Source of the DNA: Candidatus Altimarinota bacterium
GTDB taxonomy: Bacteria; Patescibacteriota; Gracilibacteria; BD1-5; UBA6164
Direction: 5' to 3'
Length of the DNA: 51,179 nt
Assembly: GCA_020631575.1 (NCBI GenBank)
Contig: JAHDGX010000002.1
Location: 1-51,179 of the forward strand
Under the pieces are notes generated by a model that saw nothing but the letters and a program-made list of their open reading frames with translations, ran no database searches and was not told where the DNA came from. Shown piece after piece: positions 3,301-49,545 of the stretch (the stretch's first letter is position 1; every line of letters begins with the position of its first letter). Both the position numbers and the translations under genes were made by a program.

Positions 3301-4433
3301 ATGAATGAGAAGCCCAAGCTAAAGAATTCTTAGAAAGAATAGCTAGTATGAGACTAGACGAAATATTTGCTGAAGTGGATAGGCTCCTTCTGGAGATACA
3401 ACCTGCTGAATCAAATACTGAAGAGTTTAAAAATTATTTTTCGAATGGAGCTCTAGACAGAGATGTATTTATAGCTTCATTAAATCAGTATATAAGTGAT
3501 ACTACTCTAGAAAAAACTGATAATGAAAATCAGAAAGAATATGAGTTAAGGGTCCGAAATGCATTTATAAGTCAATTTTGACTTTCTCAAGAACAAGCTA
3601 AAAATATTTCAAGAATATTAGAGTTAGAAAGTAATGCGGTTAACTGGAGTATACTTTTATCAAATAGTGAAACAGCAGCTCGTTGAGAAAGAGTTGATTA
3701 TCAAGCTGAACGTAGTAAGCGTCGAAGTAATGGAACTCTATATTTAACTCCATGAGAAAGAGGGTGAAGTGAAAGATTTAACTATGAAACCTGAGAATTA
3801 GAGCCAAACCCCAACTACCAACCACCTGAGGCTCCAGAAAACGATAACTCTCAAACTCCTCTACCAACAGAAAATTGATGAGAAACACCAATTTCAAATA
3901 ATTTTGAATATAGACTCTCATGAAGTAGAGATAATCCTGTAATTGAAAGCTGAGATAGTGTTATACCTATTTCTGAGCAGGAAGCTGAGCTTATCGAAAG
4001 TAATCCTGAAGCCGCAAAAAACATTATAAATATGTATGAATTCTTTAAAGATCTTAATTTACTTTGAGTCTGGGAATACAGAGAAGAGCTTGTCACAGCT
4101 GTATGAGAAGTGAGTATAAACCTAGAGGATGATTCTCTGAGAGAAGATGAACTACTACGTTTTGGGAGAAAAATACTTATTTTGGTACAAAATGTAGAAC
4201 AAGATCAAGCACAAACAGAGTGAAGAGAAGCAAATACAATAAATACTGAGGTATCAAGCCTTGATTCTCTTAATTACCAATTATCAAGATTTAGTGGATC
4301 AAGAGAACTTTGGTGAGACGATCGATCATTCAATACCTACTGAGAAGATAGGTTTGAATCTTGGATGAGAAGTTATTGAATCATTTGAGGTATTACATTT
4401 CACACCAATAGAGTCAGAGAAATGATGAAATAA
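312..4433 (+). CDS. giant acidic hypothetical protein, 1373 aa under code 25
   Basis: Track ORFs at 312, 1692, 2295 and 3348 share one phase. I walked the frame from ATG 312 to TAA 4431-4433 and saw only TGA interruptions, no TAA/TAG. Glu/Leu-rich with coiled-coil-like stretches (AEELQSLQAELIQAV). No signal peptide, TM segment or motif I recognise. Confidence 0.75.
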
Positions 4434-8234: not shown

Positions 8235-9416
8235 ATGAAAGCAATTATCTTAGCATCTGGAGAATGATCGAGGCTCAGGCCATTAACTGACACAACTCCA
8301 AAACCATTGATTAAAATTCTTGGGAAAAGTATCATTGAGTATAACCTCGAGCTGCTCAGGGATTTTGTAGATGAGTGCATAATTATAGTACGTTATAAAT
8401 CTGAACAATTTGAGGAGCTCATTTGAGATGAATATATGGGAATGAAAGTATCTTACCACAAACAGTGAGAAAAGACTGGTACTGCTGCAGCAATAGAAGA
8501 TATAGAAGTTAACACTAATGACAAACTCCTTATCCTCTACTGAGATTCTATATACCCAAAAGGAGATATTAAAAATATCATTCTCTCACATGAATATGGT
8601 TGTCTTGTAAAAGAGGTTCAGAATCCCGAAGCGTATGGGATATTTGAGCAGAAAGATTGACTCGCTACAAGAGTCATCGAGAAACCAACACAAGACGTAT
8701 GAAACCTAGCAAATATGGGATGATTCTTCGTTTCCTGAGAGCTTATAGAACTCTGTAAGTGAGTAGAGCCTTCACAAAGATGAGAATACGAAATCACTGA
8801 TGCTATCAATACATATGTAATGAAGTATCCATTTAGACTTCATAAGCTTACGGGAGAAATACTTGATATTTGATATCCATGGAATCTTTTAGATGCAAAT
8901 AATATCTTTCTTTCAGATATAGAGGAAAGCGATATAAAGTGAAGTATTGAAGAAAATGTACATATACATGGACACATTATCCTCGAAGAGTGAGCTATCA
9001 TAAAATCAGGAACATATATAGAATGAAACTGTTATTTTGGAAAAAATACTATCATATGACCGAACGCATATGTGAGATGAAACACTTCTCTGTGAGATAA
9101 TTCTAAAATTTGATTCTCTGTTGAGGTCAAAAATAGTTATATCTGAGAAAACACTAAAATATCTCATCTCTCGTATCTCTGAGATAGTATAGTAGGAAAT
9201 AATGTGAACCTTGGTTGTGGATTCAAAGTTGCGAACCTCAGACATGATGGGAAAAATATGCGTACAATGGTAAAATGAGAACTCATAGATACAGGAAAGA
9301 GAAAACTAGGGTGTATTGTATGAGATAACACTATGGCTGGTATCAACACGCAGGTATATCCAGGTAGAGTTCTCAGTACATGAACAGCTACCATTCCATG
9401 AGAAACAGTAAAATAA
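8235..9416 (+). CDS. sugar-1-phosphate nucleotidyltransferase with C-terminal left-handed beta-helix (GlmU / archaeal-type), 393 aa
   Basis: N-terminus MKAIILASGEGSRLRPLTDTTPKPL is the GxGxRLxPLT nucleotidyltransferase signature; its second Gly is encoded by TGA 8265-8267. The C-terminal half has hexapeptide-like repeats (IGENTKISHLSYLGDSIVGNNVNLG). Confidence 0.85.
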
Positions 9417-9429
9417 CTATATAAAATAA

Positions 9430-9456
9430 AAAAGTTCGGTAAACCGAACTTTTTTA
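9430..9456 (+). terminator. intrinsic terminator
   Basis: Stem aaaagttcgg, loop taaa, stem ccgaactttt, followed by a T run. Confidence 0.6.
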
Positions 9457-9515
9457 TTGACTCTCAAAATTTCATTCATATACTCTGTAAACATTAATAA
9501 ATAATTCATGTTTAC

Positions 9516-9758
9516 ATGTTAGACGGAGTACCACAATTATGACAAAAATCATGTCCCGTAGAAGATGGAAGATTTCAATTCTTAACAAAAAAAGAGGTAG
9601 AAGTATGAGAAACCGCTAAATCTCTAAAGACTTGGGTAGAAGAAGGATTTAATATGATAGATTTCCCATTCCCTAAATGATTAGATATAGATTGTAATAC
9701 AGCTCGAGAGATATTAGCTAGAGCTTGATTGCTTAGAACAAAAAGAATAGATTCATAA
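9516..9758 (+). CDS. hypothetical small protein, 80 aa
   Basis: ATG 9516 to TAA 9756-9758 with four in-frame TGA. It is flanked by terminators on both sides. No motif recognised. Confidence 0.45.
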
Positions 9759-9788
9759 AAAGACTCAGATTAATCTGAGTCTTTTTTT
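9758..9788. terminator. intrinsic terminator hairpin
   Basis: Stem agactcaga, loop ttaa, stem tctgagtct, followed by tttttt. Confidence 0.55.
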
Positions 9789-9799
9789 AATTGATTTAC

Positions 9800-9875
9800 T
9801 GGAGCCACTAATGGGACTTGAACCCATGACCTCTCCCTTACCATGGGAACGCTCTACCAGCTGAGCTATAGTGGC
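9800..9875 (-). tRNA. tRNA-Thr (anticodon GGU), CCA encoded
   Basis: Reverse complement is GCCACTA TA GCTC AGCTGGTA GAGC G TTCCC ATGGTAA GGGAG AGGTC ATGGG TTCAAGT CCCAT TAGTGGC TCCA. It folds as a perfect 7-bp acceptor stem, a 5-bp T stem with a TTCAAGT loop, and anticodon loop A-T-GGT-A-A. Confidence 0.9.
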
Positions 9876-9883
9876 AAAAGAAA

Positions 9884-9916
9884 AAGTGCTATCTACTTCT
9901 AGATAACACTTTTTTT
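9884..9916 (-). terminator. hairpin between rpmA and tRNA-Thr (terminator or processing site)
   Basis: 10-bp stem with one mismatch (gtgctatcta / tagataacac), loop cttc, and T runs on both strands. Confidence 0.4.
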
Positions 9917-9928
9917 AGAAGTATCGTA

Positions 9929-10201
9929 TTATACTACTGATACATATGTATCCTTATATACTCTTCCATCAAATCTTTTTCTTTTCTTTTCAAAGAATTT
10001 TACTGTTCCTTCTTTTTCAGCGTAGAGAGTAAAATCAGAACCTTGTCCTACTCCTTCTGCTGGCCAATATTTGTTTCCTTTTTGTCTTAAGATGATTCCT
10101 CCAGCTGTAACTGGTTGTTCTCCAAAGACTTTTACTCATAAACGTTTGGCATTACTATCACGACCATTATTCGTGGATCATTGAGCTTTCTTGTGAGCCA
10201 T
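9929..10201 (-). CDS. rpmA: 50S ribosomal protein L27, 90 aa
   Basis: Translation MAHKKAQ[G]STNNGRDSNAKRL[G]VKVFGEQPVTAGGIILRQKGNKYWPAEGVG. Both bracketed Gly are TGA and align with the invariant KKAGGS and KRLGVK positions. Confidence 0.95.
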
Positions 10202-10237
10202 AATTGTTTTTTTATGAAATAATTATAATTTTTTATA

Positions 10238-10678
10238 CTATCTATTAGCAAATCTTGCGAAAGCTTTGTTTGCTTCAGCCATCTTATAAACATCTAGTTT
10301 CTTTTTAAATGCATTCCCTGATTCATTTGCAGCTTCAATAAGTTCAGCAGCAAGAAATTTTGAGAAATCAGCACCTTTTTTACTTCTTGCTGAAGCGATA
10401 ATCCATTTAGCAGCAAGAAATAGTTGTCTTTTAGGTTTTACCTCAGAAGGAACTTGAAATACAGATCCTCCGACTCTTTTCGCACGAACCTCAATTCGTG
10501 GCATAATGTTTTCAAGAGCTTTGAAAAAGATTCCTTCAGGATTTTTTTGTCCTTTTGCTTTAATCTCTTCAAATGTATCTTGCATAATTCTCTTAGCAAG
10601 AGCTTTTTTACCATCAAGCATAACATAGTTCGTAAATTTTACGATCATGTCAGCATTATTTTTTTCTGGTAGTGCCAT
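10238..10678 (-). CDS. rpsG: 30S ribosomal protein S7, 146 aa
   Basis: Intact ORF in the track. Motifs: KFTNYVMLDGKK, PRIEVRAKRVGGSVFQVP, KKKLDVYKMAEANKAFA. Confidence 0.95.
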   Translation of the reverse strand: MALPEKNNADMIVKFTNYVMLDGKKALAKRIMQDTFEEIKAKGQKNPEGIFFKALENIMPRIEVRAKRVGGSVFQVPSEVKPKRQLFLAAKWIIASARSKKGADFSKFLAAELIEAANESGNAFKKKLDVYKMAEANKAFARFANR

Positions 10679-22310: not shown

Positions 22311-22336
22311 AAAAGAAGACTCGAGAGTCTTCTTTT
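22311..22336. terminator. bidirectional intrinsic terminator
   Basis: Stem aaaagaagact, loop cgag, stem agtcttctttt. It lies between convergent stop codons at 22304-22306 and 22349-22351. Confidence 0.65.
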
Positions 22337-22348
22337 TTATAAATATAC

Positions 22349-25300
22349 TTACCGTGCAACCTTTTGAGTTTCTAGATATTCTGATTTAAACTTCCCAACG
22401 AGTGGAGCAGTATCAGATAATAGTTTCGAACCAAAACTTACAATTGTACCTGGAGATAGTTGAGTTCATGTTTTCTCAATAAAGTATCTGTTATCAACAA
22501 GATTATCGATATCTCATGAGAGAGATCCATATACTACAAGTTGTTTTTCAGACTCGTCGGAGATAATATATCCTCCTCAAGCTGATGTAGGTATAGCAAT
22601 ATATGTTCCATCGAGTCTATCAACATCAGAAGCAATATTAATATTTCCTCCTTTCACTACAAATGCTACATTTCTATTTCCACTTACAATATCTTGCGTT
22701 AGATTCAGATCTCATCACTCTACGATATACGTTGTAGATTCCGTAAGTGTTGGGAGTGAACCAAGAGTGATGTTTTTCCCTTTAATAACAAATACATTTT
22801 TGAATCCATTATAGTTATCAAACTTATCATATCCACTTACAGTAGTGGTAGTAGGAGCCGTTTCAGTTGTAACTGAAGTTACATCATCTGTATACTCTGT
22901 TTTTTCATCTGCAACATCACTGATTACTACCATGTCTGTATTGTTCTCAGAATAACTTGATATTCATCCCGTACTTACTGAGGTCCCAACAAAGTTTTTG
23001 TTATCAGTATATCCTGAGATTCCTTGAGTAATCTTACTCACATCACCAGAAGTGTTAGATTTCACATATGAAGTTCCTCAACCAATTGTTACCACTGCAG
23101 GTTTTGCAACTCTCACATTAAGGTCTGCTGCAAAATATGCATTATATAGTTCCTCAATAGATCCATTATTATCAATATCATCTTTGATAGATGTAGTAAT
23201 TTTTGCTGATCCATAACTTTGTCCTGCTGGGATAGCGTTTTTATTTGAGATAAACTCTGGGTATACATACCTTGCAGTATCAGAAATAACTTGGTTATCA
23301 CTTACAGCTTTGTATACTCCATCACTTGTATCTTTTACTATGAAAAGTTTATTATATCCATAGAGCATTCTATTTTGCAAGTCAATACAAATTTCGTTTC
23401 CTGAAGCTTTATTTACAGAGTTATCACCATCAGTCTTTTTTACGCATAGTTTATCAAATGAATAATCATACTCTGATGTATTTTCGATGTATGGCCAAGC
23501 AGGTACTTTTGAAAGTACATTTTGATTGTGTCCAACTATGATGTCTTTCTCTGGTCCGAATTTGATTTCCCCACCTCTTGGAGTTGTAGAAATCTTAGGA
23601 TCAGGATTTCCAGATGAACTCCCCCCTGAACTTGAGCTCGTTGGCAATTTACATGTTGCACTACAAGCAAATCCTGGTTTACCATTGTCAGTTCCCATAT
23701 CACACTGTTCTCCTCTTTCTGGCTGCACAATACCATCACCACAAATAGGGTTTGTCTGGATTTGACATCTATCTTCTGTAATCCATTTATTGCTTCCTGA
23801 TGTTCCAATCTCATCTACCGAAAAAGTAGAGTCGACTGTTTTCTTTACGTAACACCTTGGGAATGGATCGCTACAAGAAAACTGCGCTGTTCTTGCCCCT
23901 GTAGTTTCTCTAATAAGAGCAGCACCAGTTTTTGGAGTAAGATATATATCGTCTCCTGTAGTTGCATCTGTTCCACATTTCATTGCGATTGATTGCACTC
24001 TATTATTTCCCCAACATGTATATGAGTTTCCAGGATTATCTATGATATCTGTACATCTCGCGGGTGATCAACTACTTGATGAAGATGATGAACTCGTTGG
24101 TGGAGTAACGTTAAGTGTTCTTTCACAGGTATTTGATGTAATAGTATCATTTACAAAACATTTAGCTGTATAAGTACCAATTGTACTCAGTGTTACTGTG
24201 CCAGTATTTTGGTTCAGAGTATTTACAATATTTCCTGCAGCATCTCTTACCTCAATTTTGTACGTACTTACATTAGTACCAGTACAAGTAAGTGTAGAAG
24301 TGAGAGTGCTTACGCTACTTGTTGGTGAAGCTGTAAGAGTGTTACATACAGCTACTACACCATTCTCAATGGTAATTGTTTCAATATCATGATCATCTTC
24401 ATCTCATCCGTCGTTACAACCTGCTGTAAGATCATTATCAACAAGGTTTGTTGTTTCACCATTTCCTCCTCTTACTCCATTTCCATTTGTATTATCTGGA
24501 TCACTATCACAGTCATCTCAGTCATCTCTGCTAATCTCAGCAAAGTTTGAAATACTTGCTGGGGCATTATCATCGATAGTAAATGTTATATCTAGATCAA
24601 CTGGCACTCCATTTGCTGGAAGGCTTGCTATAGTTCTCACTGCTGTAGAGCCTGATTGAGTCCAATTAGAATCATTAAGCGTAAGACCTGTAGGAATATA
24701 ATCTGTAATCTCTATGTTAGCTGCATCTATAGTACCTTGATTTACTACTCTTACTGTAAATGTTACGCTATCTCCTGTATTGAATGGTCCAGTAGATTTC
24801 AAAGTTTTTCTCAGAGCAAGATCATAAGCTGGTGTAATAACAGTAATTGTTTCAATATCATGATCATCTTCATCTCATCCGTCGTTACAACCTGCTGTAA
24901 GATCATTATCAACAAGGTTTGTTGTTTCACCATTTCCTCCTCTTACTCCATTTCCATTTGTATTATCTGGATCACTATCACAGTCATCTCAGTCATCTCT
25001 GCTAATCTCAGCAAAGTTTGAAATACTTGCTGGGGCATTATCATCGATAGTAAATGTTATATCTAGATCAACTGGCACTCCATTTGCTGGAAGGCTTGCT
25101 ATAGTTCTCACTGCTGTAGAGCCTGATTGAGTCCAATCAGAATCATTAAGCGTAAGACCTGTAGGAATATAATCTGTAATCTCAATATTAGAGGCATCTA
25201 TATTTCCTTGATTTACTACGGTTACTGTGAAAGTTACATCATCACCTTTAGTAAATGGTCATGCTGATTTGAGGGTCTTAATAAGTGCAAGATCATACAC

Positions 25301-26446
25301 CGGATCTGTTATAATAATTTCTTCAATATCATGGTCATCTTCATCTCCTCCATCAGTACAACCAGGCAATATTGCGTTATCAACAAGATTTGTTGTTTCA
25401 CCGTTTCACCCTCTGACTCCATTTCCATTTATATTGTCTGGATCACTATCACAATCATCCCCATCATCTCTGCTAATTTCAGCAAAATTCTGAATCACTC
25501 AAGTTGCGTCTGAATCAATAGTAAATGTAATAGGTAAACTTGTAGAAGAATCAGCAGCTAGAAATGGTATTACTCTAGTTGCTTTGTCTCACGATTGAAC
25601 CCATCAGCCATCAATAAGAGTAAGTCCATTTGGGATATAGTCTGTAATCTCTATATTATTCGCAGGAACATTTCATTGGTTTACAACGGTTATTGAGAAA
25701 GTAATATTTTCACCTGCTATAAATGGAGCCGCAGAATTTTGAGCCAAGGTTTTAAATAATGCAAGATCATATCTACTTTCAACACCACAAGTACTACTAC
25801 ATCCGTCACCTCCAACCGAATTACCATCATCACATGTTTCACCTTGATCCGTTTCTAATATCCCATCACCACAATATCGTAGCTCAATATTAAAACACTC
25901 ATTTTCATGAATCTCATAATCTTCAACTTTATAGTGTGGGTAAGTCTTTGTACTATGTGACCAAGCTCATGAATTGAAATTGTATTGGGTATAATTTTTC
26001 ACTCTAGTATTGGAACCATTTTGAGTAATTTTACCATGTTTAATGTTATACACAAACTGTAAATTTCTTTTTGAATTGTCTGTCGGTTTATGGAAAAAAC
26101 ACTGGGCACCAAATGCTACTACCCTAGTGTTATTTCCAGGGGCAACTTCGCTTTTTCTTTGCCAAGCATCAGAAGTTGTACATCATGAAACAAGGCTTGC
26201 ATCAGATCTCCAAAAAGATATCTTTGAAGTAGTAAGAGCTATATATCTATCTTCATCACTCCACATATCATCTATAAGATACCTATCAATTGTTTGTCAA
26301 TTTATATAGTATGATTTCTCTCTTAGTGCTCATGTACACTGGGCATCTCATAGCTTAGAAGATATTTCTTCTACAATTGCTGCCTGAGAGACAGAGGGGA
26401 TAAAAAATATACTTACTAGTATACTAAAGAGTACTATTCTTCTCAT
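22349..26446 (-). CDS. giant secreted repeat protein / putative adhesin, 1365 aa
   Basis: Track fragments ending at 22933, 23998 and 24802, plus the ATG at 26444-26446, share one phase. Signal peptide: [22 protein letters not shown]. There are two Myxococcus-type Cys-rich repeats ([29 protein letters not shown] and [21 protein letters not shown]...CSATC). Three 157-aa DUF11-like repeats follow (YDLAL.KT...VTFTV.VVNQG...[13 protein letters not shown]), each ending in an acidic [12 protein letters not shown]...DEDDHD module. The stop is TAA at 22349-22351. Confidence 0.85.
24380..25792 (-). repeat. 3 x 471-bp in-frame tandem repeat inside the adhesin gene
   Basis: The anchor tcaatatcat recurs at 24381, 24852 and 25323, a period of 471 nt (157 codons). 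Copies 1 and 2 are identical for about 286 nt (24381-24666 versus 24852-25137) and then diverge. Copy 3 is clearly diverged. Confidence 0.9.
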
Positions 26447-26604
26447 AATTCAGAGTTAGGAATATAATTTACATCTTGTACTGGTGGAAAAACCTGCTCA
26501 TCTTGAGTTGGTTCTTGCTCTGTAACAATTTCTGTATTTGTTTGTGATGTACATGATACTAAGATCATTAGTCATAATGCACATGCTGTTTTTCTCTTAA
26601 ACAT
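26434..26604 (-). CDS. 56-aa lipobox peptide with a Thr/Glu/Asp/Gln-rich tail
   Basis: Translation is MFKRKTACAL[G][42 protein letters not shown][G]EE. The lipobox is L-V-S-C. The start is 35 nt after the ATP-grasp gene stop, and the 3' end overlaps the adhesin start by 13 nt. Confidence 0.55.
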
Positions 26605-26639
26605 AATATATTAAATTTATAAAAATTAAAAAGTCAAAT

Positions 26640-27776
26640 TTAAATGTATTTTTTAAACATTTCTCACCACCATGATAGAATCATTCACGTAATGTCCTCT
26701 TCATCTTGTCATCGAAACATCATACTTCAGCCAAGACAGTTTATCTCGAGAAATCGGTATTCCCCATTCGGCAATTCTACAAACTCTATGACTCATACTT
26801 CTATATTATTAGCTTTGAGTATATAATTTGCTGTTTCATTCATCTTTTTGGTTACTCCTTTTTTGTCATGAACACTCCAGGATACTTTCATATTCCTTCA
26901 TGTCGTCATAGTAGCCATTTTAGACATTTCGTCTTTAGTATTATGATTTTTTTTCTTTTTTACAGAATGTAGGTCATAAGAATTACTTTCAAACGTATAA
27001 TAGAGACGGGTCTCTTCTTTTATGTCGTAAAAATCAACGAAGTATAAATCTGGGTCAAACTCAGATATTTTAGATATGTATTTTAGAAACATATATTCTA
27101 ACATCTGATCATCTCACACATACTTTTCAGTATCTACGAGAGTAATGTGCTTTCCATTATCTGTATGGCTAGATTTTTTTAGTAACATGAATTTCTCTCC
27201 CGTTACATCAAGCCATAACTTAAAAAGTTGCTGTATACTATAGGTATTTCTGCTATACATAAGTGGAAGCATAAAATTTCAAATTAACTCACTCCTTAAT
27301 TCATAGATATTTGTAATATGTGCTGTTTTTTCTTGTTTTAGGTTTTTTAAGTCCTTGTTTGGATATATAAGCCTAGGAAAATTCTCATTAATTACTGAAA
27401 CCTTATCCCATAGTACCCAAAAGGGATTTGTGAAAGAGTTTCTACTCGTACAAAAGTAGGTGTTTTTCTCCGAAATCTTAATCCACTGTTTATCAAAAAG
27501 CCATAAGTCTTCATTTAAGATAACCATGTTATTTTTATACACCCAATTAATTTTATTTGGTGGTATATCATAATCTTCCCAAACCTTTTTTATAAACATC
27601 CAAGCCTCCAAAATCAGACTATTATAGGTCGTATTCTCAGTCCGAACATCGACCCTATAATACTTGTCTTTTATGAGGTCATTGATATCTCATTTATTTT
27701 GAATATCGCTTATACTATCCATAAAGAACATGTAGTCTTTTTGTGATATTGCAGACAGGATGTAATAAAATTTCAT
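26640..27776 (-). CDS. ATP-grasp-like protein, 378 aa
   Basis: Track fragments ending at 27611 and 27104 share one phase, extended to ATG 27774-27776 and TAA 26640-26642. The C-terminal half reads EKFMLLKKSSHTDNGKHITLV...VIEFVELPNGEYRFLEINCLG[G]SMMF, which resembles the ATP-grasp fold (ExN Mg-binding motif). The Trp/Tyr-rich N-terminal half is unrecognised. Confidence 0.6.
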
Positions 27777-27807
27777 ACTCTAAATCTCTTTTTGATAAAT
27801 CTGGTAA

Positions 27808-30800
27808 CTATTCCTCTCCATCATCTGGATCTGAAGGGGTTTCTTCTGATCATGTTCCAACCTCTTCTGATCCCGTACCTTCTGAACCTGTATCGTTAGG
27901 ATCTGTTTCTGTTCCAGTTCCTTCTGTCCCAGTTCCTTCCGTTCCAGTTCCTTCCGTTCCAGTTCCTTCCGTTCCAGTTCCTTCTGTCCCAGTTCCTTCC
28001 GTTCCAGTTCCTTCCGTTCCAGTTCCTTCCGTTCCAGTTCCTTCTGTCCCAGTTCCTTCACTTCCGGTTGAGTCGTTTTCCGATCCAGTTCATGCTGGCT
28101 CTGGCTCTGGAAGAGTTGTAATATCAGGATTTTTAACATCCGTTACGAGGTCACTCGATGTGTCATGAAACTGTGAAGTACAGAGTGCTCCAAGTACACC
28201 ACATGGAAGACCGTTTCTAAGGAAGTTATATCCTTCAGCTAATATTGGTGGAGCTCAGTTGAGTAATACAACTTTTTCTGATGGTCCACATCTAATAAGT
28301 CCTTGATCGTCTGCCATTCTAAGACCTCACTCAGTGTTTGTCGTAACAACTCCAAGATATCTATATGAGCTAAGTGTAAGAGCTTGTTGCCCTAGGTCTG
28401 AATTCATTCTCTCTTCAGCAGTAGCAAATTCTTGCATATCACTCACTTCTCCTGTCGTGGCATTATATATAGCGATTGTATATTTCCCTGTTTCTGGACT
28501 AATTCCTCACATAATAAATGTATTTTCTGACCTGTCTCATGTTTCTGCATGTTTTAGACCAAAAGAGATATCATCCATTGCCAAAAAGCTTGCTTCATTT
28601 TCACTCATAATTTCAGCATATTTATCTGGGTTTTCTCTTCTCACCTCATCCATAGCTCCTGAGAGCGTTTTAGCAGAAATATCTACTTCGGAATCAGTTG
28701 CAGCTTCAGCTTGAGCATCGTGATATGCAGTATAGTCAACAACACCCTGATTATCAGTATAATCAGAAATATCTGCAAGAGAATCTTTATACTCTCTGAG
28801 TTCTGTATACCATGATTCTTCCGTAAGACCTCCTGTTTGAGAATTTATATCGTAAATCCTATCAATAAGAGACCTACTTGCCTCAAGACTCATATTTCCT
28901 GACATGATTTCTCCCGAAAGTCATTCTCTATTTGCTCCTGAAGCAGAAAGTTCAAACCATCTTGATGTTACTGTCTCACTTCCTGTTAGTCTTGTTCCTT
29001 GATATACAGCCTCCGATGTTGATGAGCCATCAAAACTTACTAGTGCTCCCGTGTGGTCTGCAGTAAAACGCTCAGTGGTAATTGTTTGATAATCATTCAC
29101 AAAAGTTCTGTGAATATCTTTATGTATTCTTGGTCTTCCTCTAAGCCCATTATTAATCTCCCCTCTTACACCTGCTTGATCCACAACATCAGCATCAGGA
29201 TATCAAACTGATACACCAAGTATAGCTCCTAGGGCATTCATACCTGTATCCAATCCCCCCCTTACATTTGCGAGCTTAATAAGTTCTCCTATCTCAGCTG
29301 CTTTAGCAATATATGATGCATGGATAGTAGTTATTAGGTTGACCGTATTTGAATTTATGTCCAATTGTTCACCTGGTTGATCAGCAAATATATCACTACT
29401 CATTTTAATTACTGATATGAGCATATCTCCTGTAACTTGTGTAGATTCTAAATGTGATCCAGTATCACCAAAGTATGATAGTGCTTCTCTTAACTCTAGA
29501 ACTTGGGCTGCGTTCATGTTTCTCATTGATTCAATAAGTTCTCTCACTCATTGAGTGTCAGCTTCTATCATCTCTACAAGTTCTGTGTTTGCTCCACCAT
29601 TTGTAAGTTCATTTATATAAGCATCCAGTTCAGATTTCTGTGCAGCTTCGAGAGCTGCTTGAGCTTGACTTATCGCTTGTTGGTTTTGGTCTGCGGCATC
29701 TGTAGCAGCTACTGCTTCAGCTGTCTGTGCATTTACAATTCATCTTGCTTCTAAAACTGCTGTATCTGCAGCTTCATCATTTGTATTTGCTGTATCTTGT
29801 GCAGTAATAGCCAAATCAAGAGCTGTCTGAGCATCTGCTGCTGCTTTTCTTGCCGTATCTACTGCTGCTTGAGCTTGAGCTACTGCTGTATCTGCAGCTT
29901 CATCATTTGTATTTGCTGTATCTTGTGCAGTAATAGCCAAATCAAGAGCTGTCTGAGCATCTGCTGCTGCTTTTCTTGCCGTATCTACTGCTGCTTGAGC
30001 TTGAGCTACTGCTGTATCTGCAGCTTCATCATTTGTATTTGCTGTATCTTGTGCAGTAATAGCCAAATCAAGAGCTGTCTGAGCTGTAGATGCTCAAGAT
30101 TCTGAAGTTTTAAGAGCCACATATGCCTCAGCATGAGCAACTAAATCAACTGCAACACTCCCGTCAGAGTTTAATTTTCAAGTTACATAGTTTATAAGAT
30201 CTTGATTCGAGTCAAAATTTAATGCATCTAGATCAATAGCAGCATCTACTGTATTTCCCCAATTTGCTCATGAATAATTGATGGCTAATTTTCAATTTGA
30301 ACGTATGAATAATGGGTCAGATGCAACAATATTCCATGAACCAATTTGATCAGAAATCGCTTGCAAAAGTGCCTGTCTATTTCTGGCAGTTACAAGTGAG
30401 GCTTCAGGATCAGATAAATCTGACAAATAGTCATCAGAGTATCCAAATGCATCAAAAGCTGCTTGTGCTGTTGATTCGTTCATTCTTGCTTGAGAAGCAA
30501 TGGTTCTTGCTTGAAGAAGCTGCGTATTCGCTGAATCAAGAGCTTCTTGAGCCTGTGTAGCTTGAGTTGTTGCAAAAGTTAATGCTGCTTCTCGTACTGC
30601 AAATCTCTCATCGGCTGCTCCATCAACAGATTCCGCTCTTGCAAGTTCTGCATTTGCTGAATCAAGAGCTTCTTGAGCCTGTGTAGCTTGAGTTGTTGCA
30701 AAAGTTAATGCTGCTTCTCGTACTGCAAATCTCTCATCGGCTGCTCCATCAACAGATTCCGCTCTTGCAAGTTCTGCATTTGCTGAATCAAGAGCTTCTT

Positions 30801-31668
30801 GAGTTTCAGTCGCTCTTTTAGTAGCCGTATCTAGATCTCTTACAGCTTGTCCTGCCTCAAACGTTTCTCTCGCAGCTGCAACTCTTAGTGATTCATCTGA
30901 TCATTCTACAGCTTCTAACTTAGCTGCCGTATCATTCAAAGCACCTTGAGCTTCAGCAGTTTGAGCTGCAAGAGCTTCTGCTGCTTCGCTTTGTTTGTAT
31001 TCGTTGAATGCACTCGTTGAGCTTGATCCAATGGAACCTCTCGTTCCATTAGTATTATATCATAGGGCTGTAAGAGCGAGTTGAACAGCTACTCTCTCAT
31101 CTAAACTGAGAGCTTTTACCTCATCTATAGTGGCATATCCTGAAAGAAGTTCTTTTGCCTGCGATACTTCGAGTTCTCTTGCCTCTCTAGCTGCTTGAGC
31201 TTCAGCTATTTTATCTTTTAATACTGAGTTAGTCATTTGGATTAGGAGAGAGATTCTTCCTTGGTCAATTACACCTCCGTCATAATCACTCATTATTTCT
31301 TTGAGAACTCTTTTTGTACCATTTCAGATTCTACCATCTACCGTAATAGTTGATTTATCAGAAGCTTTCAAAAAGAGATTCATGATGAATTGAACAGTTT
31401 TTTGCTCTTTCATTGTTGGATTGTCTTTAGCGCTATCTGGAGTAACATCTCCAAGTTCAGCAGCAATTTCTCCAGCAATAGAAAGCTCTCACTCCATTTT
31501 AGCTAGAATAGCTTCCTGAGCTTCGGGAATACTGCTAAGAGCCTCAATGTCTGACATACTGATTTCTTTATCAGCAATTGCAGTATCTACAGCAGGAGTA
31601 TCCATTCCTTGGTAGTTCGCTACGGTAAGCATAAACAGTGTTCTATAGTTTCGTAGTAGTGTAAACAT
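27808..31668 (-). CDS. giant Ala-rich coiled-coil protein with PG-binding-like motif and (EGTGT)n tail, 1286 aa
   Basis: Six track fragments (31293, 30483, 30066, 29547, 29184, 28905) share one phase. The first ATG is at 31666-31668 and the stop is TAG at 27808-27810. The N-terminal TVDGRI[G]NGTKRVLKEI resembles the PG_binding DGxxGxxTxxAV motif. It has two families of 42-aa repeats, a globular region of about 450 aa with no motif I recognise, and a C-terminal GTEGTGTEGTGT tract. Confidence 0.8.
27905..28072 (-). repeat. 15-nt (5-codon) tandem repeat encoding (EGTGT)n with a 60-nt higher-order unit
   Basis: The unit gttccagttccttcc alternates with the gtcccagttccttct variant at every fourth unit. 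Only the Gly/Thr phase is continuous with the upstream 3.7-kb ORF. Confidence 0.9.
29757..30083 (-). repeat. 126-nt (42-codon) tandem repeat, about 2.6 copies
   Basis: The anchor gctgtatctgca recurs at 29759, 29885 and 30011. The repeat encodes AQTALDLAITAQDTANTNDEAADTAVAQAQAAVDTARKAAAD. Confidence 0.9.
30531..30803 (-). repeat. second 126-nt (42-codon) tandem repeat, about 2.2 copies
   Basis: The anchor ctgaatcaagagcttcttgag recurs at 30531, 30657 and 30783. The repeat encodes EALDSANAELARAESVDGAADERFAVREAALTFATTQATQAQ. Confidence 0.9.
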
Positions 31669-31803
31669 AATATATGTTTTATAAAGTAATGTATTTGTGT
31701 TTGCGAAACAATTTACCTATTTATACTACCATACTTAAAAACAAAGATGCAAAAATAATAACTTGACGATAAATATATTTTAAGTTAGTAAAAGTAAACT
31801 ATC

Positions 31804-31837
31804 AAAAAACCTCTTTCATCACCGAAAGAGGTTTTTT
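31804..31837 (-). terminator. intrinsic terminator after the LPETG protein gene
   Basis: 13-bp stem: aaaaacctctttc pairs with gaaagaggttttt, with a 6-nt loop and flanking T/A runs. Confidence 0.65.
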
Positions 31838-31851
31838 ATATCAATATATTA

Positions 31852-32535
31852 TTATCTATTTCTAAATTTTAGAAATCCGAATCCTAGCATAAGAGCTACA
31901 AATGCAAGAAGTAAATGTTCAGCTCCGGTTTCTGGAAGTCTTGGAGGTTGTGGTACTGATGGTGGAACTTCTCCTGCTCCTGAAGTGTATAGTACACACT
32001 CTCTATGTTGTAGCGTATCAGTAGATGGAGCTCCATCTGCTTCAATGTTATGTACTGCGATATCATATACTATCATCCCAACGTTTCCTCCGGCAGCAAC
32101 TGGGTTATTTGTGAGTTGGTAGGCACTTCCTACTGTAGATTCAATCCATTTTACACTACTACCTGCAGAAAGGACGTTTCAAAGTGACTCATCACTATAT
32201 AAGGCATCTAGATCTGAAGTGTATGTCCAAAAATCTACACTATCGCTTGCTGTAACTTCTGTCCATGAAGCTCCTCCGAGTGATACAATTCTTGGCATTT
32301 CTTGTTCTTCTTTGAATAATACCTGATCTGTTGTTCCATCATTATTCCAGATATCATCAAGAAGTCCTTTATTATCTCCTTGAGATACAGCTCCTCAAGT
32401 AAAACATTGATCACAACTATTTGCAGCGTAAACAGAGTCAGCACTACATGTTACTTCTTCATACGCAGCGTATGTGCTTGTTGTCATATAAGCAAGCATA
32501 ATCCCTGCTGCTATGATTTTTGAAAATGATTTCAT
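31852..32535 (-). CDS. LPXTG-type sortase-anchored surface protein, 227 aa
   Basis: Signal peptide: MKSFSKIIAAGIMLAYMTTSTYA. The C-terminus is PPRLPETGAEHLLLAFVALMLGFGFLKFRNR, i.e. LPETG, a hydrophobic segment and a basic tail. Confidence 0.8.
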
Positions 32536-34465: not shown

Positions 34466-36526
34466 TTATTGCCAAAATCACTCACACCCTTCTCTAGAAT
34501 TTGAAAATGGTCAATTAAGCCCAATAAATCCTGTCGTTATTGGTGTGTCATTCACAACACCAGAAGAAATGTCATTTCACCATGACGTAATGCTTCCATC
34601 TGGTTTTAATGCATGGTAACTTCATTTCGCAGAATAAATATTAATATATCCTGTATCAGTCGGTTCTCAAAGTCCTCCCATTGTATCACTTCACCAAGAT
34701 GCAATACTTCCATCTGCTTTCATTGCTGCGAATCAATGTTCTTGGGCATAAAACTTAACATATCAGTTATCAGTTGGCTCTCAGTCAGCCTGAGTTCACC
34801 ATGATGAAATAGAACCATCAGCTTTTACTGCCATCATTCCTCAATACGTAGAAAGTGCTTTTACATACCCTCCATCTGTAGGAGCATCATCTCGTAATGT
34901 AGCATTTGCTGAATATATCCATAGGGTTCCATCTGCTCGAATTCCAATAAATCAGAAAAAACCTCATATAAGATCTACGAATGTATCTGTTGGAAACTCA
35001 TCTCAGTAATAATACAGCTGTCACCATATATGAATAGTTCCATCATCTCTTAGAGCTCAAAAGGTATTCCCCGTACCTACTACCTTAGTAAATCATGATC
35101 CATATGAGGTAACGAAATTTCCATTTGGATCTAATATTCTTCCTCCATAAGTCGTGTTTCCCCATACATGAATACTCCCATCAGATTTTAAGGCTCAAAA
35201 GGCTCATCTAAAATTTGAAAATATTTCTACATATCAACTATCCGTAGGAGTGTTCAAATTCCCCCATCATGTATCTCACCACGACACAACTCTACCATCA
35301 GAATTAAGAGCCGTAAAGGCTCTTGCTGTTGCTACTACAGAAGTATAGCCACTATCTGTAGGTCCTCATACTCATCATCTTGCTGGGTCTCACCAGGTAG
35401 TAATAGATCCATCTGACTTCAGAGCTGCAAACGCTCACTGTGTTCATGAAACAGTAATATAACCATTATCTGTTGGGGCTCCTGTGACCTCATTATCCCC
35501 ATCTGATCACCATACTGTCATGGATCCATCTGGCTTAAGAGCAACAAAGTTTGCATATATTGTAAAAAGTTGAACATACCCGTTATCGCTAGGGGCTCCT
35601 ACTCCTCCATAAGTATCACTTCCCCATGATTCTATACTTCCATCTGTTTTTAACCCTGCTAGGGCTCTACTATTTCCATATGCATTATTTGCTGCAGATT
35701 CTATTGTATAATACGCATTTGAATCACCACAACTATACTGACCTATTGTTAAAGGTAGACTTGGTAGTGTAGGTCAATTATTTTGTATCCCTCATGGACA
35801 TCTCCCATCCTTATTTACATCGAAACACTGAAAAGCGTTATCTACCACTCTCCATCATTTTCATTTTCTCACTATAAGATCTCATAACTCAGAAAATGTA
35901 GCTCAAGTTCCCGTAACGTAATCTTCTCATGATAAATAAGAGGAGAGAACATAAGTATTTCCTATATCTGTAAGCTCAAGAGTATTTGAAGTAAACGCTA
36001 AATCTTCAAGTGGTAGATTTGTAGCTTGCTGGGTCATAATACCTAAAGATGTCCCAAATGTCCGAGGATACCTATCTTGATTATCTGAATGTACTGAAGG
36101 AAGCAGAGCTAGGCTACTCATTTCTTCTTCCATGAATGCCATAAACTGAAAGGTTTTTTTATTAGATCATAAAAAATAACTATAGTACGTATCATCTTTC
36201 GGGTCCTTAGTATTTTCATCCATTCATATAGTTTCTAGTACATCTTTTCCTATTTTTCCCTGAAATCATACGATTACTCAACTTGAAGTGATAGTAATAC
36301 TGTTATCTGGGAGAGGAAGTTTCTTTGAAGTTGCATATTGTTGAAAGGTTTCAACTGCCTTAGTGAGAGTTGCTATTCTTTTTGTATCCCTCGCTCACAC
36401 AAGATATCAGGTATAAGAAACAAAACCAATTGTTGAGATAATTCCAACAATTGTGATAACAACGATAAGCTCTACAAGTGTAAAAGCTCATTTTTTAGAA
36501 CCGTGAAAACGAAGAATATTATGCAT
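34466..36526 (-). CDS. type IV prepilin-like N-terminus fused to about 10 RCC1-like beta-propeller repeats, 686 aa
   Basis: The N-terminus MHNILRFHGSKK[G]AFTLVELIVVITIVGIIS is a class III (prepilin) signal. The C-terminal 450 aa carry about 10 repeats of the form ALK.DGSI..WG...GG.....P.D.GY. The start, track fragment 36142 and stop TAA 34466-34468 are all in phase. Confidence 0.8.
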
Positions 36527-47487: not shown

Positions 47488-49545
47488 ATGTTACAAAAAC
47501 TTGTAAGTCTCGTTTTAGTCTTCCTGATTCCACTGAGTATAATTCACTCTGCTTTTTGAGACGATTCTCGCTCTTATATGTTAGAAAATATGTGAGAATA
47601 TAAAACATATGCTCTGGAAATGTGAGAGATGATTCCAAGTCTCGATGATAAGACTCTTGAGAGAGTTTCTCTTAAACTCTCTCAGATAGAATCTGATGAT
47701 GCGAAGCTTAATACCTTTGTAGAATATCTAGAACTCCTTATCTCAGATTCGCAGATACAAACAGTAGAAACAGTAAAGCAAGATCTAGGCCTCACTGAAA
47801 GCGAAAAAAGAAAGCTGGCAAGAGAAATAAAGAATATTGAATGAGACATGAAAAAAGAACTCAGTGAGTTTTTGGATGCTACCATATCATCATGGAACAC
47901 ACTCAGTAGATATGAAGAAAATGGTGACCTAAAAGCAAAACTTCAATATGCTGTTGAGAATCTCATAAAATTTGATGCTGAACTAAATATTTCAGAATAT
48001 ACCAATCAAGTACAAGTGTTTGACCAAAGTTTTGATGCTCAAATAGATGGATCATATACTACTGAGTTTTGGGGACAAAAAATAGATCTATCATGAGAAA
48101 GTAGTATAAACCTTATATCAAAATGAGGAGCGATATATTTGCGACTCAAAAATACTCAGCTCTCAAGCACAAACGAAGAAGTAGAGTTAGAACTCACTCC
48201 TCTTTTAGAAAAGCTCAATGAACTCTGAGAAAATAATACATATCTCTCATTTACTGATATAGACAGTGCAGAGATTATCTGATACCTTGAGAGTTTTAAC
48301 GGAAGTAGTTTAGAAAAAGAAATTGATGAAATATTCTCACAAGCACTTTTTGAAGCATATGCCAAAAATGAAGATGGATATCTCCTCAGACCAACAAAAC
48401 ATTTTTGTGATATGTGAAAAAAAATTACCAGAGTATTTGATCCATTTGGAGGGAAACTCTGTAGCGAGAAACAGTATGAAGATATGCTAGAAGATTTTTA
48501 CAAGTCGCAAACACAGATGGTTCTCTCACTTTGACTTGAAACAAAACTTTCGATTACAAACGCTCAAAGTATAGACGCATACGAAAAAATAAAAATCGAT
48601 TTTATTTGGAAAAATGCTTCTCTCAAAAACATGTCAATGACTATTTATGATGCTGCTGATCCTAGTATTTCATATTTAGATGTAAACTATACTCCTCAAA
48701 AATCACTTACTATAGTCTCAGATGTTCCTTGAGATCTCGAGCTCGATATGACTATGATATTTAACAGAGATGAATCCGTAAAATCTATGGACATGTCAAT
48801 GAAGCTAGAAGAAACGGTAACAGTAACAGCTCTCTATGACAATGATGCATTAGAAGCGAGCTTAGTATCAATAGATGATGATTTAGAAGTGACCTGCTCT
48901 ATAGCTTGAGATTTGGATAGCTCATATACTGATCTCACAGCAAAATGTATTCTCAGTGGGAAAGACGTAGAAAGAGAACTCACAAACGGTCAAGATTCTG
49001 TTCAAATAGACTCAGAGCTATATTTCAATGGAAGATCTCAAAAAAATGATTTGAGTTTTATGCTAGACGCGCAGCTGGATGAAGAGAACTATATTATCAT
49101 AGACATCACAAATACAGGAACTCGAAAAACAAGTTCACAAAAAAATATATCTGCTCCAACTAATACTGTAGATTATTTAGAATTCCTATGAAGTATAGAA
49201 ACGACAAATACTATCAATTATGATGCAGGTTACGAATATACATACGAAGAATATGATACTCATACTGAGTCATGTACCATCTATGATAATGGTGATAAAA
49301 ATTGTAGTAAATACTACAATGACAGGTCTGAAACATGTAACTACACAGCTGAAACTGACACAGAAACTTGTAGTACCTATGAATACGGCTATAGTATAGA
49401 AAACTATGAGTTTGATGATCACACTACCACATGTTATAGTTATGATGATGGAACATCTACTTGCTATGAGTATTATGATACTAAGACTCGGACTTGTAAC
49501 ATTAGTATAGAGAAAGAAATCAGCTGTAGTGAACGTGAATACTAG
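47488..49545 (+). CDS. secreted hypothetical protein with a C-terminal Cys/Tyr/Thr-rich module, 685 aa
   Basis: ATG 47488 and track ORFs 47629, 47848 and 48913 share one phase, ending at TAG 49543-49545. Signal peptide: MLQKLVSLVLVFLIPLSIIHSA. The last 100 aa or so carry 10 Cys spaced about 7-13 residues apart among Tyr/Thr/Asp/Glu. Confidence 0.75.

Follow-up and report, generated by a model that had tools for sequence, protein, structure and literature searches.

A conserved operon of a code-25 Gracilibacteria-type bacterium pairs a tailed giant protein with an unclassified ATP-grasp ligase and suggests a protein-tail modification system

Here we have combined sequence, structure and synteny comparisons to analyse a four-gene block in a 51,179-nt stretch of DNA (the window). 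Our results show that the four genes, A to D, form a conserved operon of a code-25 Gracilibacteria-type bacterium, in which a giant protein with a Thr/Glu/Gly-rich tail (A) is followed by an ATP-grasp-fold protein (B), a small anchored peptide (C) and a large secreted protein (D) (Table 1). We propose that B acts in the cytoplasm, where it would modify the tail of A and perhaps also C, a reading to which we give about an even chance.

Table 1. Position of the genes and signals of the block in the window
Feature	Position	Strand	Description
Promoter-like site TTGATA-17-TAAAAT	31777..31805	-	consensus scan, 10/12 matches; pattern match only
LPETG neighbour	31852..32535	-	227-aa secreted protein; LPETG + TM + RNR sortase signal; possibly associated
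Upstream boundary hairpin	31804..31837	-	dG -18.4 kcal/mol, z -5.4; equally stable shuffles 0/200 (RNA fold)
Gene A	27808..31668	-	1286 aa; acidic (pI 4.15), Ala-rich giant protein
Tail of A	27808..28140	-	~110 aa, disordered-looking; 29 T, 29 G, 21 E
Gene B	26640..27776	-	378-aa predicted ATP-grasp ligase, unclassified family
Gene C	26434..26604	-	56 aa; lipobox (LVSC) signal; stop overlaps start of D
Gene D	22349..26446	-	1365-aa secreted protein; signal peptide, DUF11 and Cys-rich repeats
Downstream boundary hairpin	22311..22336	-	dG -15.7 kcal/mol, z -6.5; equally stable shuffles 0/200 (RNA fold)

Read with code 25, in which UGA stands for Gly, the region resolves into four minus-strand ORFs with the coordinates originally predicted, and with translation table 11 it is fragmented into short ORFs. 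The sense reading of UGA was verified by the presence of TGA at invariant Gly positions in GyrA and in the HIGH and KMSKS regions of TrpRS; TGA makes up 281 of the 851 Gly codons, and the TGA positions of B align with Gly in its homologues. The close packing described before was reproduced with UGA as a sense codon, with gaps of 31 nt between A and B and 35 nt between B and C, and a 13-nt overlap of C and D (ATGAGAAGAATAG). Both bounding hairpins, also part of the original prediction, are real, and each is flanked by A and T runs; the upstream one is the terminator of the preceding LPETG-protein gene, which it divides from A, and the downstream one is common to a convergent ICMT-like gene. The predicted lack of an internal terminator was likewise borne out: a scan returned no terminator-like site at any junction of A-B-C-D, and the two intergenic spacers (A/B and B/C) gave no RNA structure on folding. 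The promoter-like site lies directly after the upstream hairpin, about 110 nt upstream of the start of A, and the consensus scan detected no enrichment of such sites in the region. Because of the tight spacing, the unstructured junctions and the bounding hairpins, the block looks like a single operon.

The arrangement is also kept in related genomes, so that the synteny check put forward with the original prediction holds. In a comparison set of about 11 loci, several of them closely related, the order B-C-D recurs in each of the eight other, independent loci that could be read on the downstream side, and a large gene lies upstream of B wherever that side is readable. The flanking genes differ from locus to locus (ICMT-like plus TrpRS, TrpRS alone, Cmk, YkuD-like or, as judged by eye, a calpain-like protease), and in L006/L007 the A-B pair is duplicated in tandem as a unit.

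The ATP-grasp-like nature predicted for B was confirmed at the level of the three-domain fold. The AF2 model (pLDDT 79, pTM 0.79) gave 414 Foldseek matches in the PDB at E<=1e-3, of which the best 50 are all ATP-grasp-fold structures; the list is headed by graspetide macrocyclases (AMdnB, 5e-9) with TM-scores of about 0.45-0.52, the highest TM-scores belong to Ddl structures (0.52), and RimK and ArgX are among the fold matches. Across the 39 members compared from this small family (58 clusters), five residues hardly vary: the ATP-binding Lys K200, E255, E331, E344 and N346. Of these, E331 and the E344-x-N346 stretch fall on the D/E...ExN Mg-binding motif of AMdnB and MdnC, and over the E...ExN motif the family profile matches AMdnB (E=0.006) and MdnC (E=0.007). 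As modelled, B is an ATP-grasp-fold protein with intact Mg/ATP residues. It reaches no Pfam or NCBIfam family cut-off: Pfam returned nothing even at E<=10 except an unrelated Rab5-bind match, and the MvdC/MdnC-type models TIGR04185 (E=6e-4, C-terminal 60 residues only) and TIGR04187 scored 19 against 425 bits and 11 against 350 bits. Neither the Pfam families of Ddl (PF07478/PF01820) and RimK (PF08443) nor any NCBIfam Ddl or RimK model matched B; a weak Dala_Dala_lig_C match (0.0095) appeared in one of the 39 family members, and TupA-like PF14305 matched neither B nor any of its 39 relatives. The top relatives of B in sequence and fold are peptide-modifying ATP-grasp maturases, with a similarity that is remote and does not separate graspetide ligases from Ddl, RimK and ArgX. 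That B might be a housekeeping Ddl or RimK orthologue, a concern raised with the original prediction, was rejected, since B belongs to no such Pfam or NCBIfam family and its best weak matches are RiPP-type maturases. With an ATP-grasp fold and an identity other than Ddl or RimK, enzymatic modification of neighbouring products by B is therefore plausible.

Protein A is an Ala-rich giant, as had been claimed, with 14.9% Ala over its 1286 residues (23-32% in residues 200-700) and two sets of near-perfect 42-aa repeats; the sole hint of coiled-coil character is a weak SMC match (E=0.028). The peptidoglycan-binding-like motif once attributed to it corresponds to a PG_binding_1 (PF01471) match below the gathering score (13 bits, cut-off 23; E=0.12) and finds no support. 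No Pfam family matched A, and a PDB sequence search with residues 81-235 returned nothing related. Since A carries neither a signal peptide nor a hydrophobic or TM segment in this window (signal peptide and TM segment are likewise absent from its L006 counterpart), its label as a surface component is unsupported. It also has no sortase signal, the T[LD]P..TG of its tail having no TM segment behind it.

What is conserved in A is only the Thr/Glu/Gly-rich C-terminal tail, and the body shows no homology to the positional counterparts in other loci. The tail, in which a 15-nt period recurs 10.2 times, contains (GTEGTG)n repeats and a TDPNDTG motif and ends in ...DDGEE. Since many proteins carry acidic tails of low complexity, that of A could be a linker. 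The same tail architecture was found upstream of B in L004, L006, L015, L016, L018 and L019, and acidic Thr-rich tails precede B in the distant loci L020, L022 and L023; a tail before B persists where the identity of B is 18-26% and the genome GC content is 24% and 57%. In L012 the A-like gene follows B rather than preceding it, and in L021 the 89 nt of sequence upstream of B hold no tailed ORF.

In each of the eight other loci whose sequence continues downstream of B, the position of C is occupied by a small anchored peptide. In the window its N-terminus, MFKRK-TACALGLMI-LVSC, fits on pattern inspection the bacterial lipoprotein pattern of a basic n-region, a short h-region and a lipobox ([LVI][ASTVI][GAS]C); its counterparts have a lipobox-like SC or GC in L001, L016, L018 and L019, and an uncleaved TM-like anchor instead in L004, L006, L015 and L023. 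This N-terminal anchor and a C-terminal motif, ...FPPxxxxNYIxxxELGEE, are the conserved features of C. The original description as a Thr/Glu-rich lipobox peptide fits the C of the window; the lipobox part stands, but the Thr/Glu richness is absent from the homologues.

Our comparison of the two proteins' C-termini showed that A and C end alike. Both end in ...GEE in four loci, and their terminal residues co-vary by lineage (A/C: GEE/GEE, GER/GER, PSQSEE/PSQSDE, DTPSF/DVPTF). The observed score was reached by one to three of the 720 permutations of six distinct types and, over nine loci, by at most 1e-4 of random permutations, and the match includes L023, where C and D do not overlap. L001 departs from this pattern: there the tail of A (PEETPE/PEPKPE...GDAT) ends differently from C. 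In most loci the overlapping start codon of D also constrains the last residues of C. As the terminal residue differs among lineages (E, R, K, L or F), it is unlikely that a Glu is strictly needed at the C-terminus.

The adhesin-like character predicted for D is well founded, its three DUF11 stretches (PF01345, 1.7e-39; TIGR01451, 1.8e-31) and its Cys-rich repeats scoring above cut-off (TIGR02232, 1.1e-11, 44 bits against 20.8; DUF4215, PF13948, 27.4 bits against 27). A hydrophobic N-terminus (KD 2.1) with the signal peptide is followed by a conserved N-domain, the DUF4215/TIGR02232 repeats, the three DUF11 modules and, over about 480 aa, a C-terminal domain that is likewise conserved; the N- and C-domains are 61% and 34% identical to those of the L001 counterpart, and the gene contains a 471-nt repeat in 2.4 copies. 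D has no LPXTG or TM anchor. The only LPXTG signal of the window is that of the 227-aa neighbour (LPXTG_anchor, E=0.025), whose orthologues lie between yidC and A in L001 and L004.

How should these four genes be read together? The original prediction saw all four products as a cell-surface or host-attachment apparatus, with A as a peptidoglycan-bound coiled-coil fibre and D as an adhesin; the two would lie outside the cell, and B would cross-link or modify them. Of this, the secretion of D and the plausibility of modification by B stand, and further points agree with it: C is a lipoprotein or anchored peptide, the sortase-anchored LPETG protein is a conserved neighbour, giant DUF11 proteins have been proposed as attachment factors in the related predator Vampirococcus (PMC8080830), and A, with its perfect internal repeats and rapid divergence, suits a protein under selection at the surface. 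However, the surface role of A and its peptidoglycan motif are unsupported, for the reasons given above, and an ATP-grasp enzyme cannot function extracellularly, so that any cross-linking of exported components must precede export; we consider this apparatus unlikely and its role in host attachment speculative. A looser envelope theme would make B a ligase of small molecules or envelope precursors which, like Ddl, D-Asp ligases or TupA-like enzymes, joins an amino acid to a precursor of the wall or of a glycan. The TM-scores of the Ddl structures, the single Dala_Dala_lig_C match, the envelope proteins nearby and the existence of ATP-grasp enzymes that decorate surface polymers (the TupA-like family, CfmP; PMC13419641) are in its favour, yet the sequence searches with B gave nothing significant for Ddl, RimK or TupA, and this proposal, which seems to us quite improbable, leaves unexplained the strict adjacency of a tailed protein across deep divergence, the co-duplication of A and B and the co-variation of the A and C ends.

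Two further readings uncouple parts of the block. B and C could constitute a small graspetide-type RiPP cluster with C as the precursor and A and D as unrelated neighbours, given that C adjoins an ATP-grasp gene whose nearest relatives are graspetide maturases, that the C of the window is Thr/Glu-rich and that graspetide clusters are known in CPR bacteria (PMC8939145). But C starts with a Sec/lipobox signal or a TM anchor in place of a leader, its Thr/Glu richness is not kept, it overlaps D translationally, no peptidase or exporter is found in the cluster, and the CPR graspetide loci described are built differently (small precursors, TPR and 'cluster 23' proteins; PMC8939145), which leaves this reading with little chance of being correct. 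The least credible, in our judgement, is that the gene order is mere inherited synteny near rnpA-yidC among functionally uncoupled genes: in L001, L004 and L017 synteny extends to rpmH-rnpA-yidC and further housekeeping neighbours, but the genes flanking D vary while A-B-C-D stays intact, and these varied flanks, the C/D overlap, the short unstructured spacers, the A-B duplication and the deep persistence of the arrangement argue for selection on it.

In the tail-modification reading that we prefer, the core would be the gene pair in which a giant, fast-evolving, acidic A devoid of a signal peptide is directly followed by the ligase B. As A has no export signal and B needs ATP, only in the cytoplasm could A, B and pre-export C all come together. 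There B would activate carboxylates within or at the end of the A tail, recognising its substrate by the extreme C-terminal motif, and would modify the tail by one of two chemistries. Side chains of Thr and Glu/Asp could be cross-linked through ester or amide bonds, the reaction of graspetide macrocyclases, or amino acids could be attached to Glu or to the carboxylate of the C-terminus, as RimK, TTL/TTLL and LysX do. C bears the same end motif and could be modified as well; because mature C is extracytoplasmic, any action of B on it would have to precede export. Translation of D is coupled to that of C, and as D itself lacks an anchor, C may hold it at the membrane. A more specific proposal, which we regard as tentative and rather doubtful, is that B founds a new class of protein-tail-modifying ATP-grasp enzymes, which would use a short, lineage-specific end motif on A and on the lipopeptide C and furnish the (ETGTEx)n tail with multiple Thr-Glu cross-links or with branches of amino acids.

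Several known systems resemble parts of this scheme. The graspetide synthetases (MdnB/MdnC, AMdnB, PsnB, CdnC and ThfB) share the ATP-grasp fold with B and are its best fold and profile matches; the ligase gene lies next to that of its substrate, a ribosomal polypeptide with a high content of Thr/Ser and Asp/Glu in which the core motif is often repeated, and ThfB cyclises or cross-links whole proteins in vitro (PMC12291112). B differs in a larger, unrelated N-terminal region of about 190 aa and falls far under the family cut-offs, its cluster lacks a protease and an exporter, the candidate recognition element is the extreme C-terminal motif, and the putative substrate is not a short leader-core peptide but the end of a >1000-aa protein, a C-terminal tail with conserved Thr/Glu repeats. 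RimK on ribosomal protein S6, TTL/TTLL on tubulin and LysX/ArgX on LysW are ATP-grasp ligases acting on acidic disordered C-terminal ends, as proposed for B. S6 ends in ...EE, detyrosinated alpha-tubulin in ...GEE and LysW in ...GE. B has no sequence-level match to these families, and the terminal residue of A and C varies.

Other comparisons concern the lineage and its surface. The CPR graspetide clusters of Yanofskybacteria and Giovannonibacteria (branches 1 and 2 of Makarova et al. 2022, whose text does not mention Gracilibacteria; PMC8939145) are ATP-grasp-centred with predicted Thr/Asp-containing substrates and resemble the B locus in this, but their small precursors, whose leader carries a Phhx(1,2)h motif, and their TPR, 'cluster 23', SPASM or peptidase genes are all absent here. 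[quoted passage not shown] D is like the giant DUF11 proteins of Absconditabacteria/Gracilibacteria (>1300 aa, code-25 lineage, DUF11 repeats, signal peptide), for which a role in host recognition and attachment has been proposed in Vampirococcus lugosii; that study lists single giant proteins and reports no conserved operon in which they stand beside a tailed partner, an anchored peptide and an ATP-grasp ligase (PMC8080830).

What would this mean for the organism? If the more specific proposal of a new enzyme class is right, chemistry of the graspetide or tubulin-code type would act on full-size structural proteins of an episymbiotic CPR bacterium, and a cytoplasmic scaffold might be coupled to a membrane-anchored surface adhesin, with A being cytoplasmic or non-classically exported. 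The operon suggests an undescribed protein-tail modification system in an uncultivated lineage.

Our results show that the four minus-strand genes at 22349-31668 constitute a real conserved operon, transcribed from A, which codes for a giant tailed protein, through B (a probable ATP-grasp ligase) and C (a short, putatively anchored peptide) to D (a predicted secreted repeat protein). With a table-11-type bacterial code only short ORFs are found in this block; once UGA is taken as sense, the coding capacity of the window increases about five-fold and four long minus-strand ORFs coincide with those of the original prediction. Since in-frame TGA occupies invariant Gly positions in GyrA (LLxxG-xxGIAVGM) and lies in the HIGH and KMSKS regions of the TrpRS in the window, and since TGA and GGN alternate at the same columns in the B homologues, the code was assigned as code 25, in which UGA is read as Gly. 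TGA accounts for 281 of the 851 Gly codons, and one D homologue is labelled "Candidatus Gracilibacteria bacterium" by NCBI. The packing of the genes was also borne out: the A-B and B-C spacers measure 31 and 35 nt and showed no structure by RNA folding, C and D overlap by 13 nt (ATGAGAAGAATAG), a terminator scan found no site at the A/B, B/C or C/D junctions, and no shuffled sequence was as stable as either of the hairpins that bound the block. A promoter-like TTGATA-17-TAAAAT, a consensus match only, lies just past the upstream hairpin. Rfam and tRNA scans found nothing inside the block, their sole find being a tRNA-Thr outside it.

Features of the operon in the window
Feature	Position	Strand	Description
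Gene A	27808-31668	-	1286 aa; ORF with UGA as sense
Gene B	26640-27776	-	378 aa; ORF with UGA as sense
Gene C	26434-26604	-	56 aa; ORF with UGA as sense
Gene D	22349-26446	-	1365 aa; ORF with UGA as sense
Tandem repeat 1 in A	29756-30084		126-nt unit, 2.6 copies, 100% identity
Tandem repeat 2 in A	30526-30803		126-nt unit, 2.2 copies, 99% identity; differs from repeat 1
Upstream hairpin	31804-31837	-	fold -18.4 kcal/mol, z -5.4; A and T runs on either side
Downstream hairpin	22311-22336	-	fold -15.7 kcal/mol, z -6.5; A and T runs on either side

The contigs carrying B homologues (L-numbers) were fetched and retranslated with code 25. The expectation that the block would recur in related genomes held: B is followed by a small anchored peptide and a D homologue in L001, L004, L006/L007, L015, L016, L018, L019 and the distant L023, the genes beyond D vary from locus to locus, and a large gene precedes B wherever the upstream sequence is readable, except in L021, where only 89 nt of upstream sequence are available, and in L012, where an A-like gene lies downstream of B. 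In L006/L007 the A-B pair is tandemly duplicated, giving A-B-A'-B'-C-D. In L012, B (1548-2528) lies behind dnaJ and tandem repeats of about 26 nt with stops in all frames, and the ORF behind B has an N-terminus (MIHVIKQINKNF...) similar to those of A in L001 and L004. In L004 the insertion of a transposase-like gene (2195-3250, minus strand, 351 aa, weak Pfam HTH_38) separates the LPXTG-protein gene from the A region; alongside it are a further gene, of 519 aa, and a 140-aa ORF duplicating the 3' end of A, including its ...GER terminus.

C-terminal ends of A and C, and genes beyond D, by locus
Locus	A end	C end	Beyond D
Window	...DGEE	...LGEE	ICMT-like + TrpRS
L019	GEE	GEE	
L016	GEE	GEE	ICMT-like + Cmk
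L018	GEE	GEE	
L004	GER	GER	TrpRS
L015	GEL	GEK	calpain-like protease (by eye)
L006	PSQSEE	PSQSDE	
L007			YkuD-like protein
L023	DTPSF	DVPTF	
L001	GDAT	GEK	ICMT-like + Cmk

B is probably an active ATP-grasp ligase of an unclassified family, as judged from sequence and from an AlphaFold model (13 homologues in the alignment; pLDDT 79, pTM 0.79). The best 50 listed Foldseek matches to this model in the PDB are all ATP-grasp-fold proteins, headed by the graspetide macrocyclase AMdnB (5e-9) and then CdnC, MdnC and PsnB; Ddl, PruB, ArgX and RimK are interleaved among them. TM-scores across these matches are about 0.45-0.52, and the modelled fold likeness cannot separate ATP-grasp subfamilies. B matched no Pfam family, its family members gave only stray sub-threshold Pfam matches, and the sole NCBIfam match was the MvdC RiPP-maturase model (19 bits, E=6e-4, cut-off 425). 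An alignment of 39 members showed complete or almost complete invariance at K200, E255, R257, K273, E331, E344 and N346, and its profile matched AMdnB (0.006), MdnC (0.007) and MdnB (0.057) across the Mg-binding D/E...ExN motif. B appears closest, remotely, to peptide-modifying maturases. The ATP-grasp-like enzyme predicted beside the giant proteins is supported by the fold matches and conserved residues, and a housekeeping ligase, which would have refuted the original prediction, is not what was found: with Pfam families unmatched and peptide maturases nearest, B is by sequence not a Ddl or RimK orthologue. A defence-system or phage origin was rejected, since PADLOC and PHROGs returned no match for B or the D C-terminal domain.

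The B family is small: 1.84 billion cluster representatives, searched exhaustively by profile, yielded 58 relatives. It comprises two paralogous clades; B2, 28% identical to B, lies behind the second giant protein in L006/L007 and directly behind B in L022. A custom degenerate DNA pattern found six loci among metagenome contigs, with B present in L009 and L012 only, and zero loci in a viral collection. The B-alignment scan of representative genomes, whose back-translated patterns likely miss TGA-encoded Gly, had as its sole match L008 (Treponemataceae), which was discarded as a graspetide-type ATP-grasp locus unrelated to the operon; there (9251-10508, horse faeces MAG) an MdnC-like ATP-grasp in two ORFs precedes a 69-aa Asp/Thr/Ser-rich peptide, in what looks like an ordinary graspetide cluster.

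A is acidic (pI 4.15) and rich in Ala (14.9%). The proposal that it is a surface protein binding peptidoglycan could not be demonstrated: no hydrophobic segment was found, hence no Sec signal was seen, PG_binding_1 scored 13 bits against a cut-off of 23, and PDB sequence searches with the N- and C-terminal regions gave nothing supporting such binding. Its body contains two arrays of 126-nt repeats (99-100% identity), which indicate an apparently very recent expansion and fast evolution. Homology of this body to its positional counterparts was rejected because tblastn, blastp and hhalign align the low-complexity tail only; by the same methods the A proteins of L001, L006-A1, L019 and L004 are mutually related, the A of the window falling outside that set save for its tail. 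A second giant acidic protein of 1373 aa (312-4433, plus strand) adjoins gyrA, without an obvious signal peptide, a nearby B-like ligase or a Thr/Glu repeat tail.

At the sequence level, the tail is the conserved part of A, and the body is not conserved. The last 110 residues in the window include 29 T, 29 G and 21 E, with a 15-nt repeat present ten times, and A tails share a layout of a KPEP-type linker, (ETGTEx)n or (GTEGTG)n, T[LID]P[GNE][DNE]TG, (GTGSENE)n and a short terminal motif. The T[LID]P[GNE][DNE]TG element (TLPGDTG, TDPNDTG) lies about 30-45 residues from the A end in the window (27808-28140), L001, L015, L016, L018, L019 and L022; it loosely resembles LPXTG, but is one residue longer and has no TM segment after it. 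Acidic Thr-rich tails also precede B relatives of 18-26% identity in L020 (57% GC; ...EDTAEDTPEDTAEDTPEETEENTI), L022 (24% GC; ...PTEGEETTSETLPGDTGPGGTIGPGGDE) and L023 ((NQDKPx)n...STEGGGGTEDTIDDQPDTPSF).

The ends of A and C co-vary, the single mismatch being L001, where a truncated A-like ORF has a GER end. When six distinct types were permuted, 1-3 of the 720 pairings reached the within-locus match score; with nine loci, the fraction of random permutations doing so was 1e-4 or less. As an independent signal the GE[EKR] end of C was rejected, being partly due to the overlap with the D start ATG-AGA-AGA, and in most loci this start (MRR or MRK) also constrains the C end. It was retained as evidence because the A end, which overlaps no gene, matches it, and because the L023 ends match with C and D non-overlapping. 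The simplest reading of these sequences would be a protein-level constraint common to both ends.

The original interpretation of the block is supported in part: the conserved operon and its non-housekeeping ATP-grasp bear it out, a surface location of A is not demonstrable, and a role in attachment is conjectural. D has a hydrophobic signal peptide, three DUF11 modules (1.7e-39), Cys-rich DUF4215/TIGR02232 repeats and 30 cysteines, and neither LPXTG nor a TM anchor was found in it; it is predicted to be a secreted repeat protein, and proteins of this type have been proposed to act in attachment in Vampirococcus (PMC8080830), where giant DUF11-type proteins occur. An AF2 model of its conserved C-terminal domain, on homologue P0075 and nine relatives, was poor (pLDDT 50), and Foldseek gave no match at E<=1e-3 and a few insignificant beta-helix hits. 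The sequence of C shows a K/R n-region together with an LVSC lipobox. Among the neighbours, a 227-aa secreted protein (31852-32535, minus strand) carries an LPETG + TM + RNR sortase signal; its counterparts in L001 and L004, 41-47% identical, are likewise placed between yidC and A. No sortase gene was found within the window, and a likeness of the L023 D-like N-terminus to this family was discarded as too weak (E=0.004-0.45). In a 686-aa protein (34466-36526, minus strand), the N-terminal methylation motif of type IV pilins (N_methyl, 2.1e-5) is followed by RCC1-like beta-propeller repeats; for a pilin or pseudopilin, such a protein with a propeller as its head would be unusually large. A 685-aa secreted protein (47488-49545, plus strand) ends in a Cys/Tyr/Thr/Glu-rich repeat of about 110 residues (...TCxxYEYG..., ...TCYSYDDGTSTCYEYYD...); its gene lies behind a run of others resembling, by eye, glycosyltransferase and O-antigen-ligase-like genes.

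What could the module do? A shows no signal for export, B depends on ATP, and C is an exported peptide; a single reader could therefore encounter both ends in the cytoplasm alone. No conserved enzyme other than B is present in the operon. We propose that B would recognise the terminal motif and then modify the Thr/Glu tail, either through side-chain ester or amide links in the style of graspetide ligases, or through the addition of residues to carboxylates, in the manner of RimK, TTL and LysX. The anchorless D may be held at the membrane by C, to which it is translationally coupled. The acidic tails could instead be passive linkers. On the reading that B modifies the tails, we class the module with ATP-grasp systems modifying proteins or peptides. 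One graspetide ligase cross-links whole proteins in vitro (PMC12291112). CPR graspetide loci (PMC8939145) have small precursors and accessory genes unlike this operon, and a TupA-like ATP-grasp required for fimbrial modification (PMC13419641), which belongs to another family, sets a precedent in concept. In the papers covered on Gracilibacteria and Absconditabacteria, giant DUF11 proteins are mentioned, and neither this operon nor any ATP-grasp.

The pairing of tail and ligase and the co-variation of the A and C ends are new here, and put a specific enzyme-substrate hypothesis in place of a vague "modified surface apparatus". The uncultivated Gracilibacteria and Absconditabacteria live as episymbionts or predators, and most of their genes lack an assigned function. 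In this module an orphan ATP-grasp family is joined to a conserved Thr/Glu tail whose end motif co-varies; the two are concrete candidates for an enzyme and its substrate, can be tested without culturing the organism, and could yield a practical tool in the form of a protein ligase or cross-linker directed by a tag. Should B indeed modify the tails, graspetide, RimK or TTL-type chemistry would extend to giant structural proteins, and the module would be an entry point into how CPR bacteria build their envelope or cytoskeleton.
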